A stretch of 63,772 nucleotides of DNA, filler included, from an uncultured Methanosarcinales archaeon (lineage in GTDB: Archaea; Nanobdellota; Nanobdellia; Woesearchaeales; DSVV01), in the NCBI GenBank assembly GCA_964593285.1. It is 4 parts of 4 records of this genome, joined end to end, with 100 filler letters (N's around TTAATTAATTAA, not from the genome) between each part and the next. Parts side by side here need not be neighbours in the genome. Positions count along the whole stretch, not along the records: positions 1 to 21,772 come from CAZQHZ010000019.1; 3 more parts are not named here. One strand, 5' to 3'. Made by a program: the position numbers and the translations under genes. Every line of letters begins with the position of its first letter. The stretch's first letter is position 1. The notes beneath the pieces are model-generated. The model saw nothing but the letters and a program-made list of their open reading frames with translations, was not told where the DNA came from and searched no databases. Below, piece by piece: positions 1,740 through 21,872 of this stretch.

Positions 1740-2930
1740 ATGGAAAATATTAAAACACTAAAAGATTTTGATTTTAAAGATAAACGAGTATTAATTAGAA
1801 CAGATTATAACGTTCCAATAGATTCAAATGGAAAAATTACTAATTCTAAAAGAATAATTGATTCAGTTAAAACAATTAAATATTTACTTAAAAATAATGT
1901 AAAACAAATAACAATTATTACACATTTTGGACGACCAAAAAATAGAGACGAAAAATTAAAAACAGATGTAATTGCAAAAAAACTAACTGAAATTTTAAAT
2001 ATTAATGTGAAAAAATTAAATTCTTGGGAAAAAAATGAAAATGAAGATAGTAAAATTGTAATGTATGAAAATTTAAGATTTAATGATTTTGAAAAACATG
2101 AAGATGAAGAAAAACGAGATGAATTTGCAAAATTATTAATTAAAGGAAATGATATTTTTGTAATGGAAGCTTTTTCTAATATGCATCGCAAGAAAGAAGC
2201 TTCAATGTCATCAATTATAAAATTTATTCCATCATGCATTGGTTTTTTAGTTGAAAGAGAAATTAGTACAATTAATAATGCACTAAATCATCCAAAAAGG
2301 CCGTATATAGCAATAATTGGAGGATTAAAAGGTGATAAAATAGATTCAATTGAAAATATTATGCAATATGCAGACAAAATTATTGTTGGTGGAACCCTTG
2401 GTTTTTTATTCAATCATGTTATGGGAATAAATATTGGAAAAACAAAAATAGATTATGAAAAAATAAATAAAGCAAAAGAATTAATTAAAAATGATTTTGA
2501 TAATAAATTAGTTATTCCAATTGACTGTGTAATTGCAGATAGTTTTTCTAATGATTCCAATTTTAGAGAAGTTAATATTGATAATATTGATGATGATTTT
2601 ATGGCTTTAGATATTGGCAGAAAAACAATTAAGTTATATTGTGATTTACTAAGTAATTCAAAAACAATAACATGGAATGGGCCTATTGGTGTTTTTGAAT
2701 TTGAAAATTTTTCAAATGGAACAAAAAAAATTTCAGAATCAATTGTAGATGCAACAAAAAATAATGCAATTACAATTATTGGTGGTGGAGATAGTGCTGC
2801 TGCAATTGAATTATTTAATTATCAAGATAAAGTTAGTTTTGTTTCAAGTGGTGGTGGTGCATCACTAATGATGTTTGAGCGAAAAGAATTACCCATATTA
2901 AAATTGTTAAAAAAATATTCAAATAATTAA
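1740..2930 (+). CDS. pgk: Phosphoglycerate kinase
   Basis: RVLIRTDYNVP, THFGRP, ENLRF, LDIG, WNGPIGVFE, GGGDS, VSSGGGASL. Confidence 0.97.
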   Translation: MENIKTLKDFDFKDKRVLIRTDYNVPIDSNGKITNSKRIIDSVKTIKYLLKNNVKQITIITHFGRPKNRDEKLKTDVIAKKLTEILNINVKKLNSWEKNENEDSKIVMYENLRFNDFEKHEDEEKRDEFAKLLIKGNDIFVMEAFSNMHRKKEASMSSIIKFIPSCIGFLVEREISTINNALNHPKRPYIAIIGGLKGDKIDSIENIMQYADKIIVGGTLGFLFNHVMGINIGKTKIDYEKINKAKELIKNDFDNKLVIPIDCVIADSFSNDSNFREVNIDNIDDDFMALDIGRKTIKLYCDLLSNSKTITWNGPIGVFEFENFSNGTKKISESIVDATKNNAITIIGGGDSAAAIELFNYQDKVSFVSSGGGASLMMFERKELPILKLLKKYSNN

Positions 2931-2932
2931 AT

Positions 2933-4858
2933 TTATTTTAATTCATTTACTGCAATTATTTCAGGCATTTCTCTAATTTTTGAAATAGTTTCTTTAATTT
3001 TAGAATTAGAACTAGTTTCAATTTTTAATGTAATTAATGCATGTTCTTTATTTGTATCAGATAAAATATGAGTAATATTTACATCTAAATTTGAAATGAG
3101 TTTTAAAATATCTACAAGCAAACCAACTCTATCATTTACACTTATTTTTAATGTTGTGTATTTTTTTTTAGATATATTTTTCCATTTTAATTTTATATTT
3201 TTTGGATTTTTTACTGCATGAATATTTGGACAATCTTTTTTATGTACTGTAATTTTTTTATCTTTTGTTAATAAACCTAAAATATCATCATTTAATTTTG
3301 GAGAACAACATTTTGAAAGTTTTAGTGGATAATTTATTTTTTTATCTAAAATTTCTAAATTCTCAAGAATTTTACTATCTGATAATTCTTCATTTACTGA
3401 TTGTTTTTTTAAATCTATTGGATCAATTTTTAATTTACTTCGAATTTTACTTCTAGCCTTACTAGTTTTAATAAAAGTTAACCAATTTCTTGAAGGTTTT
3501 GCATCTTTTGTTGTAATTATTTCTACAACATCACCTGGCATTAATTTTGTATCAAGCGTCATTAATTTTGTGTTAACTAAAGCTTTTGAACATTTATCGC
3601 CTAAATTTGAATGAACTTGATATGCAAAATCTATAGGTGTTGAATTTTCAGGTAAAATTATTGGATCGCCCCTAGGAGTAAAAACAACAATTTCCTTATC
3701 AAATAAATCAAACTTTAAATCTTCAATAAATTCATTTGCATCAACTGATGATTGTTTCCATTCAAGTAATTGTTTTAACCATGATATTTTTTTATCAAAT
3801 CTTTTATCACTCTGGCTTCCTTGATATTTCCAATGAGCAGCAATCCCATCTTCAGCAATTTTATGCATATCTTCTGTTCTAATTTGAATTTCTAAAATTT
3901 TACCATGACTTCCAACAACAGCAGTATGCAATGACTGATAACCATTAGCTTTTGGTGTTGCAATATAATCTTTAAATCTTTTTGGAAAAGGCCTCCACAA
4001 TTCGTGTATTGCACCAAGTGCACTATAACATTCTGGAATTGTTTTAGTAATAATTCTAATTCCAATTAAATCATATATTTCATTAAAATCAACTTTCTTT
4101 TTAATCATTTTTTTGTAAATACTATAAAAATATTTAGCTCTACCATATACTTGTGCATTAATATTTAATTTCTTTAAAGCAGATTTAATTGTTTTAATCA
4201 TCTCTTTTGTTGATTTTTCACGCTCATTTCTTTTTTCATTAATTTTTGCTCGCAAAAATGCATAAGTTTCAGGTTCTAAATACCGCAAAGATAAATCTTC
4301 AAGTTCGCCTTTTATATGCCACATCCCTAATTTATGAGCAATCGGTGCAAATATATCTTTAGTTTCAGTTGCAATTCTTTTTTGTTTTTCTTCTCTAAGG
4401 GTATTTAAAGTTCTCATATTATGCAATCTATCAGCTAATTTTATTAAAATAATCCTTATATCTTTTGTTGTTGCAAGAAGCATTTTTCTAATATTTTCAG
4501 CTTTATATTCATTTAATGAACCAAAATTAATTTTATCAATTTTAGTCATTCCCTCAACAAGCATTGCAATTTCTTTGTTAAAATCTTTTTCAATATCTTT
4601 TAGAGTTACATTAGTATCTTCGACAACATCATGAAGCAGTGCTGCACAAATTGTGGTTGAACCAGATTTTACATCAGTTAAAATCATTGCTGTTTCAAAA
4701 GCATGCAAGAAAAATGGTTCGCCTGAAACTCTAGTTTGTCCTTCATGAAATTTTTTTGCATAATTATATGATTTTTCAATTATATCTAATTTGGCATTTG
4801 GATTATAAGAAATAATTTTGTTCTTTAAAATATTAAATGAAAATTCGTTTTTTTTCAT
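2933..4858 (-). CDS. rel: Long bifunctional (p)ppGpp synthetase/hydrolase (HD-SYNTH-TGS-ZFD-ACT)
   Basis: AALLHDVVED, KLADRLHNMRT, RFKDYIATPKANGYQSLH, EIQIRT, GIAAHWKY, VFTPRGD (TGS), KCC..H..C (ZFD), DRVGLL (ACT). Confidence 0.95.
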   Translation of the reverse strand: MKKNEFSFNILKNKIISYNPNAKLDIIEKSYNYAKKFHEGQTRVSGEPFFLHAFETAMILTDVKSGSTTICAALLHDVVEDTNVTLKDIEKDFNKEIAMLVEGMTKIDKINFGSLNEYKAENIRKMLLATTKDIRIILIKLADRLHNMRTLNTLREEKQKRIATETKDIFAPIAHKLGMWHIKGELEDLSLRYLEPETYAFLRAKINEKRNEREKSTKEMIKTIKSALKKLNINAQVYGRAKYFYSIYKKMIKKKVDFNEIYDLIGIRIITKTIPECYSALGAIHELWRPFPKRFKDYIATPKANGYQSLHTAVVGSHGKILEIQIRTEDMHKIAEDGIAAHWKYQGSQSDKRFDKKISWLKQLLEWKQSSVDANEFIEDLKFDLFDKEIVVFTPRGDPIILPENSTPIDFAYQVHSNLGDKCSKALVNTKLMTLDTKLMPGDVVEIITTKDAKPSRNWLTFIKTSKARSKIRSKLKIDPIDLKKQSVNEELSDSKILENLEILDKKINYPLKLSKCCSPKLNDDILGLLTKDKKITVHKKDCPNIHAVKNPKNIKLKWKNISKKKYTTLKISVNDRVGLLVDILKLISNLDVNITHILSDTNKEHALITLKIETSSNSKIKETISKIREMPEIIAVNELK

Positions 4859-5559: not shown

Positions 5560-6147
5560 TTATTTTTTATTTTTTCCAAACAAAAACACTTTTTTTAAAT
5601 GTTTATTTGCCTTTTCTTTAGATAAATTAGTCATAGAACCAAATAGAGTAGTTTTTACTTTATTAAACCCACAAAATTTTAATAATCCATTTTTAATCAT
5701 TTTAACTGAAATATTTCCAAAAATCTTATAATAAAACCAAGGGCCGCCACTAGTTACAATTAATCTTGCAGTTTTACCTTTTAGAAAACCTCTTGGAATG
5801 CCATTTATGTATTTAAATGCAAATCCTGGTAAAAATACTCTATCAATAAAACCTTTAAATAAAGCAGGAACACTATGCCACCATATAGGATAGATAATTA
5901 CAACATGTTCTGCCCATTTTATTAATTTTTGAGCATTTACTAAATCTTTTTCAAGTGGCTGTATTTCACTATATCCCTTCCATAAAATTGGATCAAATTT
6001 TAATTTTGAAACAGAAATTGTTTTAACTGTTGCATTTGCTTTTTTTGCACCATTTATATATTTTTTAAATAATTCACCACAAAAAGAGTCAATATTTGGA
6101 TGACCTAGTATTACCAATATTTTTTTATTATAATTATTTTCATTCAT
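5560..6147 (-). CDS. NAD(P)H dehydrogenase (quinone), flavodoxin-2 fold
   Basis: ILGHPNIDSF, YPIWWHSVPALFKGFIDRVFLPGFAF, LKGKTARLIVTSGG. Confidence 0.9.
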   Translation of the reverse strand: MNENNYNKKILVILGHPNIDSFCGELFKKYINGAKKANATVKTISVSKLKFDPILWKGYSEIQPLEKDLVNAQKLIKWAEHVVIIYPIWWHSVPALFKGFIDRVFLPGFAFKYINGIPRGFLKGKTARLIVTSGGPWFYYKIFGNISVKMIKNGLLKFCGFNKVKTTLFGSMTNLSKEKANKHLKKVFLFGKNKK

Positions 6148-6237
6148 TTTATTTAGTAAAATTTTTTAAAATAAAAAGATTGTTATAAAAATTAGAATAT
6201 TTATAATAATTAAAAATTTAATTTAATAATAAGGATA

Positions 6238-7440
6238 TTATTTATATTTGATTTCTTCAATTACTTTTTTATTATGTGTAGATATTATATGAAAATATCT
6301 GTCTTGAGGAATATGAATATATGGCACATCTTCTTCATTTCTAAACATAAAACAAGATAAAATTGCTCTATTTACAGCTTGATGGCCTATTATTAAAATA
6401 TCATTTCCACCATCTGACAAATATATTGCTTTTCTTAAACCTAAATATACTCTTTTTTTAAGATCTTTATAACTTTCACCATTAATATATTGATAATTAT
6501 ATTTATCTTTTGTTCTAGATTTATATTCATTATAATAATTCTTTTTTATATCATTATATGTCATTGAATCAAATATCCCACAATTTATTTCATTAAATTC
6601 AGATAATTTAATTATTTTTATATCCTTTTTATTTTGAAAAAATTCTGCAAAATTAATGCTTCGTTTTTTAGTACTTGTAAATATATATTTTATTTTTTTA
6701 TTTTTAAGATTATTATATAATTCTAATGCTTGCTCTTTTCCTTTTTTTGTTAATGATGAATTTCCTCCAATTTTTCCTTTTTGATTAAATAAAGTTTCAC
6801 CATGTCTTGCAAGAAAAAGATTGGTAATATTATCTGATGTTAAAATATCTCTTATTCTTGAATAAAAATAAAAATGATCTGTTATTTTTTCATTAATTAT
6901 TTTATTTGAAAATGAATCAATCTTAATCATATTATTTTCATCTAATCTTTCAAAAGACTTTTCATAAAAAGAAATTCTTTTTTTAAAACTATTAATTGCA
7001 TCTTTTTGATCCATACTTTTAAAATCAGATATTTTAGATTTATTAATTATTGAAAGTTTTAATATTTTAAAATTATTATTTACACATTCAATGAATAACG
7101 TGTTATGTTTTATTTTTTTTTTAATTAGTTCTCGTCTTTTAATTGTGGAATTTGTAGCATCAAGTATTGCTATATTGCCTTTTTTATTTAAAAATGATGA
7201 TGCAGAATTAATATTTTCTTGTGCAATTAATTCTCTAATATTTTTTCCTTTTTCATTATTATTATCAAAAAAATCAGGTGATGCACCATTATTTAATCGA
7301 TTTCTTCTAACTTCACCATTATTAAAAATTTTAACATTTAATCCATAACTAATTAAACTATTTTTAATTTTGTTTGCAATTATAGATTTACCTCGAGCAG
7401 GAAGTCCAACCATAACTATGCATATTTTTTCAGTTTTCAT
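6238..7440 (-). CDS. Bifunctional 6-phosphofructo-2-kinase/fructose-2,6-bisphosphatase homologue (PFKFB-like)
   Basis: Kinase half: MVGLPARGKS, FNNGEVRR, DATNST..RR, FIEC, F..RI..YE. Phosphatase half: RHGE, GKIGG, NEI..G, GESY.DL, HQAV.R. Confidence 0.88.
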   Translation of the reverse strand: MKTEKICIVMVGLPARGKSIIANKIKNSLISYGLNVKIFNNGEVRRNRLNNGASPDFFDNNNEKGKNIRELIAQENINSASSFLNKKGNIAILDATNSTIKRRELIKKKIKHNTLFIECVNNNFKILKLSIINKSKISDFKSMDQKDAINSFKKRISFYEKSFERLDENNMIKIDSFSNKIINEKITDHFYFYSRIRDILTSDNITNLFLARHGETLFNQKGKIGGNSSLTKKGKEQALELYNNLKNKKIKYIFTSTKKRSINFAEFFQNKKDIKIIKLSEFNEINCGIFDSMTYNDIKKNYYNEYKSRTKDKYNYQYINGESYKDLKKRVYLGLRKAIYLSDGGNDILIIGHQAVNRAILSCFMFRNEEDVPYIHIPQDRYFHIISTHNKKVIEEIKYK

Positions 7441-7529
7441 TTTTTGTTTAATTTATAGAATAATAATATATAAAAAAATTAATTATTTAATAAATTTTAG
7501 GTATAAAGCATATTTAAATGTAGCATAAA

Positions 7530-9233
7530 TTATATTACATCTTTTCTAGTATATGTGGTATGTAATAATTTATGTGCTTTCTTGCCACCATATTCGCCCA
7601 AATATTCTTTATATAATTTTATTACAGATGGATTTTTATGTGATAAACGTATATTTTTTCTTGAATCTAAATCATTTAATAATTTTATACGTTTTTCAAT
7701 TTTCTTTTTATTAGTATGTGGCTGTCCACCACCACCAATACACCCACCATAACATGCCATAACTTCAATAAAATCATATGTGCAAGTATTATTTTTAATC
7801 TGCTCCATTATTTTTCTTGCTTCACCTAAAGTGTGAACAACACAAACATTTAATGTTTTTTTACCAAAATTTATTTTTGCCTCCTTTAGAGTTTTCATAC
7901 CATGAATTTTATTAAAGTTTATTTTTTTAAAATCTTTAACACCAAGCCAATCTGCAGCTGTTCTAAGAGCAGCTTCCATAACACCACCGCTTCTTCCAAA
8001 AATAGCAGCAGCACCACTGCTTTCACCTAAAGGATTGTCAAATTCACTATCTTCTAAATTTTCAAAATCAACATCCAATTGCTTTAATAATTTTGCAAGT
8101 TCTATAGTTGTTAAAACATAATCTGCTTCACCAAAAAATTCAGGTCTTAAGATTTCATATTTTTTTGCAGTGCATGGCATAATATCTACCAAAATAATAT
8201 CTTTTGGATTTATTTTCATTTTTTTTGCAAAATAAGTTTTTGTAAGAGATGCTAGTATTGCTTGTGGACTTCTGCATGAAGACATATGATTTAATTGATC
8301 GTAAAAAAATTGTTCACCAAATTTAATCCATGCAGGACAGCATGTTGTAATCATTGGCATATTTTCATTCTTTTTGAATCGTTTAATAAATTCAGTTGCT
8401 TCTTCAACAATTGTAATATCAGCTGCAAAATCTGTATTAAAGACTTTGTTAAATCCAATTTCTTTTAATGCAGTCACCATTTTTCCAGTAACCGTTCTTT
8501 TTGTTAAATTAAAACACTCACCTAGTGTTGCTCTAATTGAAGGTGCGGTTTGTACAATTAAATATTTATCAGAATTTAATGCATCAATTACATGCGAAAT
8601 ATCAGATTTTTGAGTTAATGCACCAGTTGGGCATGAAATTACACATTGACCACAATTAACACAGCTACTTTGATCCATGTTTTTTTCAAAAGGTGGTTTT
8701 ACAACTGTTTTAAAACCTCGGTTTTGAAGTCCTATTGCATAAACAGTTTGTATCTCATTACAAACTCTAATGCATCGTTCACATAAAATACATTTATTAT
8801 TATCTCTCCTAATAGAAACACTAGAATTGTCAACATCTTCATGTCTTTTTTCTCCAAAATATCGTAAATCTTTTATCATAAATTCTTCTGCATACATTTG
8901 TAATTTACAATCTCTATTTCGCTCACATGTAACACAGTTTAAATCATGATTTGCAAATAATAATTCTAAATTAATTCGTCTAGCTTCTAAAACTTTTGGT
9001 GAATGTGTATTTACAATAATTCCCTCGCGCACAGGAGTACAGCATGATGCAAATAATTTATTTGAATTATTAATTTCAACAACGCATAATCTACAAGCAC
9101 CAATTCGCTCAAGTCTTTCATCTAAACATAAATGAGGAATATGAATTTTATTTTTTTTTGCAACATCTAAAATCATTTCTCCATCTTTTGCAATGATTTC
9201 TTTTCCATTAATTGTTAATTTTATTTTTTTCAT
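7530..9233 (-). CDS. hydA: [FeFe]-hydrogenase catalytic subunit, group A (2Fe-2S, His-ligated 4Fe-4S, 2x4Fe-4S, H-cluster)
   Basis: L1 TTCCPAW, L2 MPCTAKKYE, L3 EVMACYGGCIGGGGQP. Also GACRLC, HDLNCVTC, CILCERC, CVNCGQC and C-terminal LLHT.Y. Confidence 0.95.
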   Translation of the reverse strand: MKKIKLTINGKEIIAKDGEMILDVAKKNKIHIPHLCLDERLERIGACRLCVVEINNSNKLFASCCTPVREGIIVNTHSPKVLEARRINLELLFANHDLNCVTCERNRDCKLQMYAEEFMIKDLRYFGEKRHEDVDNSSVSIRRDNNKCILCERCIRVCNEIQTVYAIGLQNRGFKTVVKPPFEKNMDQSSCVNCGQCVISCPTGALTQKSDISHVIDALNSDKYLIVQTAPSIRATLGECFNLTKRTVTGKMVTALKEIGFNKVFNTDFAADITIVEEATEFIKRFKKNENMPMITTCCPAWIKFGEQFFYDQLNHMSSCRSPQAILASLTKTYFAKKMKINPKDIILVDIMPCTAKKYEILRPEFFGEADYVLTTIELAKLLKQLDVDFENLEDSEFDNPLGESSGAAAIFGRSGGVMEAALRTAADWLGVKDFKKINFNKIHGMKTLKEAKINFGKKTLNVCVVHTLGEARKIMEQIKNNTCTYDFIEVMACYGGCIGGGGQPHTNKKKIEKRIKLLNDLDSRKNIRLSHKNPSVIKLYKEYLGEYGGKKAHKLLHTTYTRKDVI

Positions 9234-9248
9234 TTTAAAACCTAAAAA

Positions 9249-11045
9249 TTATTCTTTTGTAATAGCTTTAATTGGGCAAACATTAAAACATGAACCACAT
9301 TTTATACATTTTTCTTGATTTATTGTATGTTTTTTTTTTAATTCACCACTAATTGCATCACTTGGGCATACTTTTTTACAAGCGCCACATCCTATGCAAT
9401 TTTTAGTTATTTTAAAATTTAAAAGTGAATTACAAACACCTGCTTTACATTTTTTATCCTTGATATGTTCAATATATTCTTTTTCAAAATATCTTAGTGT
9501 TGACAAAACTGGATTTGGTGCCGCTTGGCCTAAACCACATAAAGAATTATTTTTTATAAAATTAGCTAAATTTTTCATTTTTAAAATAATATCTAAATCA
9601 GCTTTACCTTTTGTTATAGATTCAAGCATTTCAAGAAGTCTTTTTGTTCCTTCCCTACAAGGAGTACATTTACCACAGCTTTCTTCTCCAGTAAAATTCA
9701 TAAAAAATCTTGCAATATCAACAATACATGATTTTTCAGATATTACAACAATTCCACCAGAACCCATGATTGAACCAAGTTCTAACATATTCTCATAATC
9801 AAGTTTAGTGTTTAATTTATTTTTTGGAATGCATCCACCAGCAGGACCACCTGTTAATAAGGCTTTAAAATCTTGATCATTTTCAATTCCACCACAAATA
9901 TCATAAACTATATTTTTAAGTTTAATACCAATTGGAACTTCAACAATACCAGTATGTTTAACATCACCTGTAACACATAATACTTTTGTACCTTTTGTTT
10001 TTAAAGTTCCAATTTTTTTAAATTCGTCTGCACCTTCACTCATAACAATTGAAACATGATCTAGTGTTCCAACATTATTTACATTTGTTGGCATGCTAAA
10101 TAAACCTTTTTGTGCAGGAAATGGTGGTCTTGGAATTGGCGAGCCACGCTTTCCTTCCATTGATTTTATTAATGCAGTTTCTTCACCACATACAAATGCT
10201 CCAGCACCCATTTTAATAGATAAATCAAAATTAAAATCTTTTATTCCAAGAATATTTTTTCCAAGTAAATTATTTTTATATGCAATCTCTATTGCTTTTT
10301 GCATAATTTTTATAGCTAAAGGATATTCTGCCCGTGTATAGATAAATCCTTCAGTTGCATTTGCTGCAAATGATGCAATTAATAAACCTTCTATTATACT
10401 AAATGGATCGCTTTCCATTAAAGTTCTATTCATAAAAGCTCCAGGGTCTCCTTCATCTCCATTTCCAATTAAAAATTTTTTAGATTTTTTATCTGCAATA
10501 AAAGACCATTTTTTTCCAGTTGGAAAACCAGCTCCACCCCTGCCTCTAAGACCAGAATCTAAAACTTCTTGTATTGTTTTTTTTGGACCTAAATTAAACG
10601 CATTAACTAAACCACTAAACCCACCATATGCTATATAATGATTTATGTTTGTTGGATTAATAAAACCACTTTTTTTAGTTACTATTCTTTCTTGTTTTTT
10701 ATAAAAATCAATATTTTCTAATTTTTCTGAAATGAAATTGCTTTTAAATATTTCATTTTTTTTAATTGCATCGATTAATCTATCAACATTTTCAATGGTT
10801 ATTTTTCCATATATTGAATTTTTATTATTTTGTTTAACAGTCACAATAGGCTCATTATAACACATTCCAGAGCAACCAACAATATCTATTGGAATATTTA
10901 ATTTAGCTTTTTTTAATGCTTCATATACTTCATTTGCACCAGCAGAAATACCACAAGTTGCCATTCCAATAGTTAATCTATCTGAATTTAGTTCATCTAA
11001 TGTTTTCTTAACATTTTTTTTTTCAATTAAATCTTTAAGTTTCAT
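9249..11045 (-). CDS. hydB: NADH/FMN-binding diaphorase subunit (NuoF-like) with N-terminal 2Fe-2S and C-terminal 2x4Fe-4S
   Basis: GRGGAGFPTG, NGDEGDPGAFM, FVCGEETAL, ESCGKCTPCREG, CIGCGACKKVCP, CIKCGSCFNVCP. Confidence 0.93.
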   Translation of the reverse strand: MKLKDLIEKKNVKKTLDELNSDRLTIGMATCGISAGANEVYEALKKAKLNIPIDIVGCSGMCYNEPIVTVKQNNKNSIYGKITIENVDRLIDAIKKNEIFKSNFISEKLENIDFYKKQERIVTKKSGFINPTNINHYIAYGGFSGLVNAFNLGPKKTIQEVLDSGLRGRGGAGFPTGKKWSFIADKKSKKFLIGNGDEGDPGAFMNRTLMESDPFSIIEGLLIASFAANATEGFIYTRAEYPLAIKIMQKAIEIAYKNNLLGKNILGIKDFNFDLSIKMGAGAFVCGEETALIKSMEGKRGSPIPRPPFPAQKGLFSMPTNVNNVGTLDHVSIVMSEGADEFKKIGTLKTKGTKVLCVTGDVKHTGIVEVPIGIKLKNIVYDICGGIENDQDFKALLTGGPAGGCIPKNKLNTKLDYENMLELGSIMGSGGIVVISEKSCIVDIARFFMNFTGEESCGKCTPCREGTKRLLEMLESITKGKADLDIILKMKNLANFIKNNSLCGLGQAAPNPVLSTLRYFEKEYIEHIKDKKCKAGVCNSLLNFKITKNCIGCGACKKVCPSDAISGELKKKHTINQEKCIKCGSCFNVCPIKAITKE

Positions 11046-11047
11046 TT

Positions 11048-11647
11048 TTATTTTAATTTTGAAATTTTATTTTTAATATTATTATTTGTTACATTACCAT
11101 ATACTTTATTATTGATTGTTATAGCTGGTGCTTTTGCACATGCACCAATACAATTTACGGTTTCTAATTTAATTAAATTGTTTTTTGTTGCCTCATTTGG
11201 TTTAATACCTAAATTATCACAAATAAAATCAACTAATATACGTGAACCTTTAACATGACATGCAGTTCCAGTACAAACAGAAATTAAATATTTTGCAGGT
11301 TTATTTGTTTTAAATTGAGAATAAAATGATGCAACTGAGAAAATCTCGGTTCCAGGAATATTTTCACTTCTTGATAATTTTTCTAATTCTTCTATTGGTA
11401 AGTATCCTTTTTTTTCTTGAATTTTTTGTAAAATAACAATTAAATTTGATTGATTTAAATTTTTTTTATAATTATTATTTTTTAAATTTAATAAAAATTT
11501 TTCCTTTTCTTTTTTTAATTCACTAGATGTTGGTTTTGTTTTTCCTAAGTATTTACTAACTTTTTTATACTTTTTCCCGTCACGAATTGTATGATACAAA
11601 TAATAGTAACTAACATTATTTTTTTTTAATTCTTTTAGATAAGGCAT
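11048..11647 (-). CDS. hydC: 2Fe-2S subunit (NuoE-like) with an extra ~60-aa basic N-terminal domain
   Basis: VASFY, CTGTACHVKG, CIGACAKAP. N-terminal extension MPYLKELKKNNVSYYYLYHTIRDGKKYKKVSKYLG. Confidence 0.9.
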   Translation of the reverse strand: MPYLKELKKNNVSYYYLYHTIRDGKKYKKVSKYLGKTKPTSSELKKEKEKFLLNLKNNNYKKNLNQSNLIVILQKIQEKKGYLPIEELEKLSRSENIPGTEIFSVASFYSQFKTNKPAKYLISVCTGTACHVKGSRILVDFICDNLGIKPNEATKNNLIKLETVNCIGACAKAPAITINNKVYGNVTNNNIKNKISKLK

Positions 11648-17710: not shown

Positions 17711-17856
17711 GGGGACATAGCTCAGCCTGAGGAAAAATTTGCTTTTCCGGCTAAGGAGAGCACTAGACTGAAGATAAACATCAAATGATCTGATGAGGCA
17801 AAAGCCAATGATTATTAGAGATCTAGGTGTCCGGGGTTCAAATCCCCGTGTCCCCA
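17711..17856 (+). tRNA. tRNA-Phe(GAA) with two BHB introns (D-loop 17730-17754; 37/38 17774-17820); CCA not encoded
   Basis: Spliced sequence GGGGACA TA GCTC AGCCTGGGA GAGC A CTAGA CTGAAGA TCTAG GTGTC CGGGG TTCAAAT CCCCG TGTCCCC A forms a full cloverleaf. Anticodon at 17770-17772. Confidence 0.95.
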
Positions 17857-21772: not shown

Positions 21773-21872
21773 NNNNNNNNNNNNNNNNNNNNNNNNNNNN
21801 NNNNNNNNNNNNNNNNTTAATTAATTAANNNNNNNNNNNNNNNNNNNNNNNNNNNNNNNNNNNNNNNNNNNN
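21773..21872. other. Artificial joining spacer N44-TTAATTAATTAA-N44
   Basis: Six-frame stop linker. The identical construct occurs three times. Confidence 0.95.

Follow-up and report, generated by a model that had tools for sequence, protein, structure and literature searches.

6-Phosphofructo-2-kinase/fructose-2,6-bisphosphatase (PFK-2/FBPase-2), which is bifunctional, is known from animals as PFKFB1-4, with structures from rat testis (1BIF/3BIF), human PFKFB3 (2AXN and others), PFKFB2 (5HTK), and liver (1K6M). Among prokaryotes, a Desulfovibrio desulfuricans exception is reportedly credited to Rider et al. 2004 and to Michels & Rigden 2006. The available text of recent papers treats control by fructose-2,6-bisphosphate (Fru-2,6-P2) as specific to eukaryotes, with this Desulfovibrio case as the one exception cited (PMC12873801, PMC9721465). 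A Methanobrevibacter ruminantium gene was given a pfkfb3-like function bioinformatically, according to the available part of PMC7772410, and no experimentally studied archaeal PFK-2/FBPase-2 was found in the searchable literature. In this study, we describe a PFK-2/FBPase-2-like gene in a DNA stretch of 63,772 nucleotides (the window) from the genome of an uncultured archaeon (GCA_964593285.1, here G000). We believe that its product, P0001, is probably an intact prokaryotic-type PFK-2/FBPase-2, predicted to make and hydrolyse Fru-2,6-P2, which would have come from bacteria and would act through a non-canonical target.

The gene and its two domains were located in the window as follows:

6238..7440, minus strand: PFK-2/FBPase-2-like gene, a 400-codon open reading frame (ORF) encoding P0001 (400 aa)
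6871..7437, minus strand: 6PF2K kinase domain, residues 2-190 (Pfam, 143.3 bits against a cut-off of 27, E 9e-42)
6256..6819, minus strand: His_Phos_1 domain, an FBPase-2-like histidine-phosphatase domain, residues 208-395 (117.5 bits against a cut-off of 21.7, E 8e-34)

The kinase domain is N-terminal and is followed by the phosphatase domain on the same chain. The motifs quoted in an earlier note on this DNA were all present, namely GLPARGKS at residues 12-19 (Walker A), DATNST..RR at 94-103, RHGE at 212-215, and HQAV at 353-356, and its description of a bifunctional homologue with both domains in kinase-phosphatase order was confirmed. None of the NCBIfam equivalog models reached its cut-off with P0001. 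The public gene call, P0002, has 391 aa and starts at Met10, 9 codons later than P0001, which would remove the strand preceding the P-loop. Because the alignments of relatives begin at residue 1-5 of P0001, we preferred the 400-codon reading. The 520-residue chain of PFKFB3 was matched at positions 36-414 only, so that P0001 corresponds to the enzyme core, with neither the N-terminal nor the C-terminal regulatory tail.

The fructose-6-phosphate (Fru-6-P) pocket of PFKFB3 is formed by Arg74, Arg75, Arg98, Asp124, Thr126, Arg132, Arg189, Tyr193, and Thr48 (PMC3177832). These residues were mapped through an alignment of P0001 to human PFKFB3 (6iby), with a numbering offset of 18 that was checked by the spacings Thr48-Arg74-Arg98-Asp124-Thr126-Arg132-Arg189-Tyr193. 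Eight of the nine are identical in P0001 (R45, R46, R69, D94, T96, R102, R155, and Y159), and Thr48 is replaced by S19; the Fru-6-P-binding residues are therefore intact in alignment. In the phosphatase domain, the same alignment placed the catalytic set at H213, E284, and H353, the counterparts of His253, Glu322, and His387 in what we take to be the PFKFB3 numbering. The mapped pocket and catalytic residues were invariant across a 22-row alignment of the clade to which P0001 belongs. The phosphatase sugar-phosphate ligands of the liver enzyme, presumably the Asn after RHGE, the Arg of KR, Tyr, Arg, Lys, Tyr, Gln, and Arg, are kept in P0001 as well. At the position after the second catalytic His, P0001 has Gln354 (in HQAV) as eukaryotes do, whereas most clade members have Arg. 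One archaeal copy, in genome G369 (L102:169-1344), reads RHEET where all other clade members read RHGET, with the catalytic His retained.

Among solved structures, the relatives of P0001 were the rat testis enzyme and human PFKFB2/3 (E 7e-58 to 7e-55 over residues 6-387). An AlphaFold model of P0001 had a pLDDT of 88.3, the first 25 Foldseek rows listed for it were all PFKFB chains (E about 1e-34), and the modelled phosphatase domain superposed on 1tip with a template-modelling (TM) score of 0.90 and a root-mean-square deviation (rmsd) of 2.0. When the window was compared with contig X2 from a second study, 5/5 listed variants within the gene were synonymous; the X2 stretch has two differences beyond the variants listed. 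The gene is apparently under purifying selection, as judged from these variants. Because the pocket and catalytic residues are conserved and the listed variants are all synonymous, P0001 is probably functional, most likely as a Fru-2,6-P2 kinase/phosphatase. It shares with animal PFKFB1-4 the domain order, the Walker A motif, the Fru-6-P pocket, the His/Glu/His set, and the fold of each domain, but it is only about 32-33% identical to them, has no regulatory tails, and falls in a different clade.

Trees were built with FastTree (116 rows) and with IQ-TREE (51 rows, LG+C20+F+G4 PMSF). The 51-row set, which leaves aside fragmentary representatives, multi-stretch ones, and most of the eukaryotic rows, was chosen before the tree was seen, and P0289 was added later. 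Both programs placed 24 bacterial and 4 archaeal sequences in one clade with 100/100 support and a long stem. On the opposite side of that branch, look-up identified fungi, a bird, a green alga, an amoebozoan, holozoans, and a labyrinthulid. The earlier note had called the gene eukaryote-type; by its place in these trees and its lack of regulatory tails, P0001 is a member of the prokaryotic branch instead. Nothing in the trees ties the archaeal copies specially to eukaryotic sequences, and for this reason the gene adds little on the origin of eukaryotic PFKFB, on which it had been expected to bear. Marine-metagenome proteins of roughly 408 aa form a separate group that is also on the eukaryote side. 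A short bifunctional group (397-414 aa; P0159, P0161, P0135, P0149, P0168, P0216, P0221, and P0223), mostly from marine metagenomes and with one member named Methylobacterium sp., groups with eukaryotes and not with the Desulfobacterota-type clade. Judged by this grouping, it may bear more on the PFKFB origin than the gene of the window.

Inside the prokaryotic clade, P0001 is the first branch in the IQ-TREE result, and the next node has support of 96/61. Its row was flagged for unusual composition, and the basal place may be a composition artefact. The copies of the other three archaeal carriers, G369, G010, and G516, group apart from P0001 with one protein from a metagenome-assembled genome (MAG) of Thermodesulfobacteriota (98/95). 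The G516 copy (P0125) and this Thermodesulfobacteriota MAG protein (P0289) are sisters at 100/99, though just 49% identical, which reflects either a transfer between bacterium and archaeon or a binning error in one MAG. A single archaeal clade appeared in 0/200 bootstrap trees; an approximately unbiased (AU) test in which the archaea and that Thermodesulfobacteriota row were held together gave no rejection (p 0.32). From the distribution described below, the DPANN archaea would have acquired the gene from bacteria, once or possibly more often.

Of 8000 proteins scored in a word-indexed search, 1321 reached E <= 0.001. The best 120 of these, the window's own protein aside, were 45-51% identical, mostly about 400-430 aa long with both domains, and every source name among them that states an organism is bacterial. 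In an exhaustive search of representatives, E <= 0.001 was reached by 8391 proteins and 1e-30 by 256; fused relatives above 700 aa were covered through this search only. The nearest Atlas clusters (339, 182, and 92 members) are mostly bacterial. In bacterial contigs with one genome per species, at least 598 candidate stretches were found, of which at least 536 encode a relative. The best 80 of these have 41-50% identity, and no title among them names an archaeon; they belong to Desulfovibrionales, Desulfobacterales, Desulfatiglandales, Syntrophales/Smithella, anammox Planctomycetota (Scalindua, Brocadiaceae), Bacteriovoracaceae, and unclassified 'Deltaproteobacteria'. The bacterial relatives are mostly Desulfobacterota. 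With at least 536 bacterial species genomes and 1321 matched clusters, the earlier view that prokaryotic homologues are rare is not supported, while its other half, that they are poorly characterised, agrees with a family that appears uncharacterised in the searchable literature.

Among DPANN archaea the gene is rare. Full-length copies were found in 2/401 DPANN genomes of a phylum sample (G000 and G369; the unpublished genomes G273 and G419 count in the denominator only), where the other matches were stand-alone phosphatases of about 200 aa, and in 3/401 genomes of an order sample (G000, G369, and G516). G010, from a family sample, is a further carrier, which makes four DPANN carriers in all. 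The G516 protein P0125 is identical to NCBI 'Nanobdellota archaeon' MGM5487830.1. No relative above 49% identity to P0001 was found in metagenome contigs, and just one of the 160 loci scanned below had low GC, in a stretch of 1.8 kb. The other DPANN copies resemble P0001 in being bifunctional, about 400 aa long, and encoded in small archaeal genomes; they are 46% identical to it, no closer than the bacterial ones, and have other neighbours. Compared with the Desulfobacterota homologues, P0001 has the same length (about 400-410 aa), the same two domains, the invariant residues, 41-50% full-length identity, and membership of the 100/100 clade, but its host is a DPANN archaeon with a genome of 1.18 Mb and 23% GC. 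P0001 thus adds a new archaeal member to a prokaryotic family that is known but biochemically uncharacterised.

The known target enzyme of the animal system was not found in G000. In profile searches, G000 had no match to PF00365 (ATP- or PPi-dependent phosphofructokinase, PFK), PF00316 (class I fructose-1,6-bisphosphatase, FBPase), PF01950, PF04587, or PF03320, and no ADP-dependent PFK, GlpX, or class V FBPase. A test for activation of the genome's own PFK or PPi-dependent PFK had been suggested, but no PF00365 and no class I, II, or V FBPase was found in it. PF00365 and PF00316 were absent from the matches in 3/3 archaeal carriers tested, G000 (95.9% complete), G010 (88%), and G369 (91%), and PF00365 had no match in 24/24 family relatives. 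In contrast, both were present in 5/5 bacterial carriers tested, which were Fundidesulfovibrio agrisoli, Ca. Scalindua rubra, and MAGs titled 'Deltaproteobacteria bacterium', Desulfatiglandales, and Bacteriovoracaceae. The available text of one study describes Woesearchaeota as commonly without pfk and as carriers of trimeric group A [FeFe] hydrogenases (PMC8421398).

G000 encodes two proteins like phosphoglucose isomerase (PGI) and a class II fructose-1,6-bisphosphate (Fru-1,6-P2) aldolase (C2:94294-95190), and Fru-6-P is therefore plausibly present; judged from these genes, Fru-6-P and Fru-1,6-P2 are probably both metabolites of the archaeon. The step between them is without a recognised enzyme in G000. 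A PfkB-family kinase (C1:87425-88234), with ribokinase-like best matches, and a protein resembling inositol monophosphatase (IMPase) and FBPase (C1:62320-63069) both stayed below all cut-offs, and a pyruvate kinase (C13:16239-17192) was above the TIGR01064 cut-off. Neither a DeoC-type aldolase nor a transaldolase was found in G000. Pyruvate kinase is also present in G010 and was not found in G369, too few carriers to count as evidence.

The enzyme would work as follows. The N-terminal P-loop kinase domain would convert Fru-6-P and ATP to Fru-2,6-P2, the C-terminal domain would hydrolyse it back via a phospho-histidine at H213, and Fru-2,6-P2 would regulate a non-canonical target allosterically, for which the pyruvate kinase, the PfkB-family sugar kinase, and the IMPase/FBPase-like phosphatase are candidates in the genome. 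We also considered a bolder version, in which a DPANN archaeon without PFK-1, PPi-PFK, and FBPase-1 signals through a receiver never described for Fru-2,6-P2 outside eukaryotes, perhaps pyruvate kinase or the enzymes interconverting Fru-6-P and Fru-1,6-P2, and in this way sets how much sugar carbon enters ferredoxin-linked fermentation and goes to H2. This version is tentative, and we think it rather unlikely to hold as a whole.

Several points weigh against a Fru-2,6-P2 enzyme of bacterial origin with a new target. A signal without known receivers is odd, and in an assembly of 38 contigs and 95.9% completeness a PFK may lie in the gaps. No measured activity of a prokaryotic clade member was found in the searchable literature, including the available text of PMC9721465, PMC12873801, PMC7772410, PMC12965863, and PMC11793985, and the NCBI names of the relatives vary ('histidine phosphatase family protein', 'bifunctional nucleoside/nucleotide kinase/histidine phosphatase', and others). 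The whole-chain TM score of the P0001 model was about 0.5 with an rmsd of about 17, as the domains are placed differently from those in the crystal structures; we treated this arrangement as a probable effect of monomer prediction and not as a finding. The direction of transfer is read from distribution only, and a basal P0001 would also be expected under an archaeal origin or a composition artefact.

One alternative is that the clade has kept the fold and changed the chemistry, acting on a different furanose phosphate or nucleotide-like substrate, for example a pentose phosphate that feeds the RuBisCO-linked nucleotide salvage which these archaea possess. The missing canonical targets in the three archaeal carriers would fit this, as would the form III-like RuBisCO that was found in G000 and G010, the Arg that follows the second catalytic His in most of the clade in place of the Gln of eukaryotes and P0001, and the generic NCBI names. 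However, the Fru-6-P pocket residues of the kinase domain are all kept, and the bacterial carriers possess both PFK and FBPase-1, in keeping with the classical role. In the phosphatase, the presumed sugar-phosphate ligands are kept too. We regard a change of substrate as unlikely, although it is the strongest of the competitors. The RuBisCO large-subunit match of G000 (C5:38256-39230) consists of two Pfam pieces in one 493-codon frame; the match is split in G026 as well, and the domain may contain an insertion.

The neighbourhood of the gene supplies the next alternative, and its features are listed here:

11048..11647, minus strand: hydC-like gene, NuoE-like 2Fe-2S subunit (Pfam/NCBIfam scan)
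9249..11045, minus strand: hydB-like gene, NuoF-like flavoprotein subunit (Pfam/NCBIfam scan)
7530..9233, minus strand: hydA, catalytic subunit of a group A [FeFe] hydrogenase (NCBIfam, 771.6 bits against a cut-off of 765)
7441..7529, minus strand: spacer of 89 nt from the hydA stop to the ATG of the PFK-2/FBPase-2 gene
5560..6147, minus strand: Flavodoxin_2-type NAD(P)H oxidoreductase gene, 90 nt downstream of the PFK-2/FBPase-2 gene
1740-2930, plus strand: pgk, 3.3 kb from the PFK-2/FBPase-2 gene

On the minus strand the order is hydC, hydB, hydA, the PFK-2/FBPase-2 gene, and the Flavodoxin_2-type gene, so that the earlier note was right on the codirectional hydCBA, the 89-nt gap, and a pgk about 3 kb away. 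The locus was recovered in microbial-mat metagenome runs of two studies. Contig X1 spans 5581-10206 with the flavodoxin-like gene, the PFK-2/FBPase-2 gene, hydA, and hydB, and contig X2, from the second study, spans 5581-7204 and shows the adjacency of the flavodoxin-like and PFK-2/FBPase-2 genes again.

This arrangement had suggested that the gene might work within the hydrogenase unit, with a sugar-phosphate signal tying glycolytic flux to H2 production. Beyond the shared strand and the 89-nt distance, the G010 homologue (46% identical) offers some encouragement, as it lies between an adenylate kinase gene and porGDAB, 85 nt upstream of the latter; 2/4 archaeal copies thus adjoin ferredoxin-linked fermentation modules, which is a weak lead. 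The compact G010 block (L011:4413-11891) holds adenylate kinase, the homologue, and porGDAB; an acetyl-CoA synthetase of the ADP-forming kind is encoded there on the opposite strand. The spacing at the window's own locus argues otherwise. The gaps within the hyd genes are 2 nt and 15 nt, against 89 nt before and 90 nt after the PFK-2/FBPase-2 gene, and the 89-nt spacer contains a T7 run at 7472-7478 and then a TTTATATA box at 7467-7474, 26 nt before the ATG. These motifs are weak evidence in DNA of 22% GC; they may be the gene's own terminator and promoter pair, with a TATA box whose spacing fits a leaderless transcript. The gene would then be transcribed independently of hydCBA.

The other carriers speak against the unit too. 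Only G000, 1/4 archaeal carriers, has a hyd neighbour. The G516 homologue (L135:6647-7849) has a U32 peptidase gene directly upstream on the same strand, and that of G369 shares its 2.8-kb contig with the gene for a VWA protein. The U32 peptidase gene also stands directly upstream, on the same strand, in a Desulfovibrionaceae MAG (L095:5891-7867). For the bacterial neighbours, two ORFs per side were called in 41 of 80 loci with usable flanks, and seven look-alike loci were dropped; neither a hydrogenase nor a PFK was found among the 134 neighbour ORFs of the remaining 34 loci. The recurrent neighbours were Bax1-I (9 loci), M48 peptidase (3), acetyl-CoA hydrolase (3), hexapeptide transferase (3), and Maf (2), and single cases included a transketolase with ribulose-phosphate epimerase and an IMPase. 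HydA/B/C, the flavodoxin-like protein, and the PorA/B/G and adenylate kinase (Adk) of G010 served as tblastn queries on 160 loci, 80 from genomes and 80 from metagenomes, of which 96 measure 8 kb or more. HydA-like pieces turned up in 2/160, each over 6 kb away from the gene, and one of these two loci also had a HydB-like piece. HydC, the flavodoxin-like protein, PorA/B/G, and Adk had no matches in the 160 loci, and a hydrogenase was adjacent to the homologue in 0/160. A search of metagenome contigs for close relatives of HydA matched its patterns in 401 stretches, none of which was confirmed.

The hydrogenase linkage is not conserved, and since this linkage had been chosen beforehand as the deciding observation, the coupling to H2 output is unsupported. 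To our knowledge, no allosteric effect of Fru-2,6-P2 on a hydrogenase or on pyruvate:ferredoxin oxidoreductase (POR) has been described. We find it very unlikely that the gene belongs to a hydrogenase unit.

The host of the gene, a very small DPANN microbe of symbiont type, is an archaeon, as the earlier note had assumed. For the 16S gene of G000, on contig C10, the archaeal model gave a score of 1449 bits and the bacterial one 1105.6 bits. Contig C19, which is window positions 1-21772 in full and the only part of the window contiguous with the gene, also encodes a TrmB-type regulator. From 21773-21872 onward the contigs are joined by N runs around a TTAATTAATTAA linker. On C19, a tRNA match at 17711-17856 (plus strand; 146 nt, Rfam 47.1 bits) had no ARAGORN call; by eye it resembles tRNA-Phe(GAA) interrupted twice, once within the D-loop region and once behind the anticodon, a layout known from archaeal tRNA genes with several introns. 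Next to pgk, at 2933-4858 (minus strand), C19 encodes a RelA/SpoT protein of bacterial type and full length, with HD, synthetase, TGS, and ACT domains (TIGR00691, 700 bits where the cut-off is 499); archaea do not usually have long enzymes of this kind. A sensor histidine kinase lies at 267-1676. A bacterial host, suspected from these two genes and from HydABC, was ruled out by the 16S model scores and the intron-bearing tRNA.

The gene has a GC content of 20.3%, against 24.8% for C19 and 22.9% for the genome. Because of the archaeal 16S, the intron-bearing tRNA on C19, the matching GC, and the recovery in two studies, the gene is not an obvious binning artefact. That it is a recently transferred passenger without a role, or part of a mis-binned bacterial contig, would suit the very patchy DPANN distribution and the other bacterial-type genes on C19, but it is highly improbable in view of that tRNA, a host-like GC where 41-60% is expected for the kind of genome that its bacterial relatives have, the runs of two studies, the synonymous variants, and the intact catalytic residues.

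We return, then, to an intact prokaryotic-type PFK-2/FBPase-2 with a non-canonical target. The gene of the window extends to archaea a large, apparently uncharacterised prokaryotic PFK-2/FBPase-2 branch, and its main interest is the role that a Fru-2,6-P2 system would have in an archaeon without the canonical targets. The archaeal carriers can be regarded as natural experiments, in which purifying selection maintains an apparently functional enzyme in the absence of the classical receivers. For that reason they could bring to light either a new receiver or another substrate, the latter for all of the prokaryotic branch.

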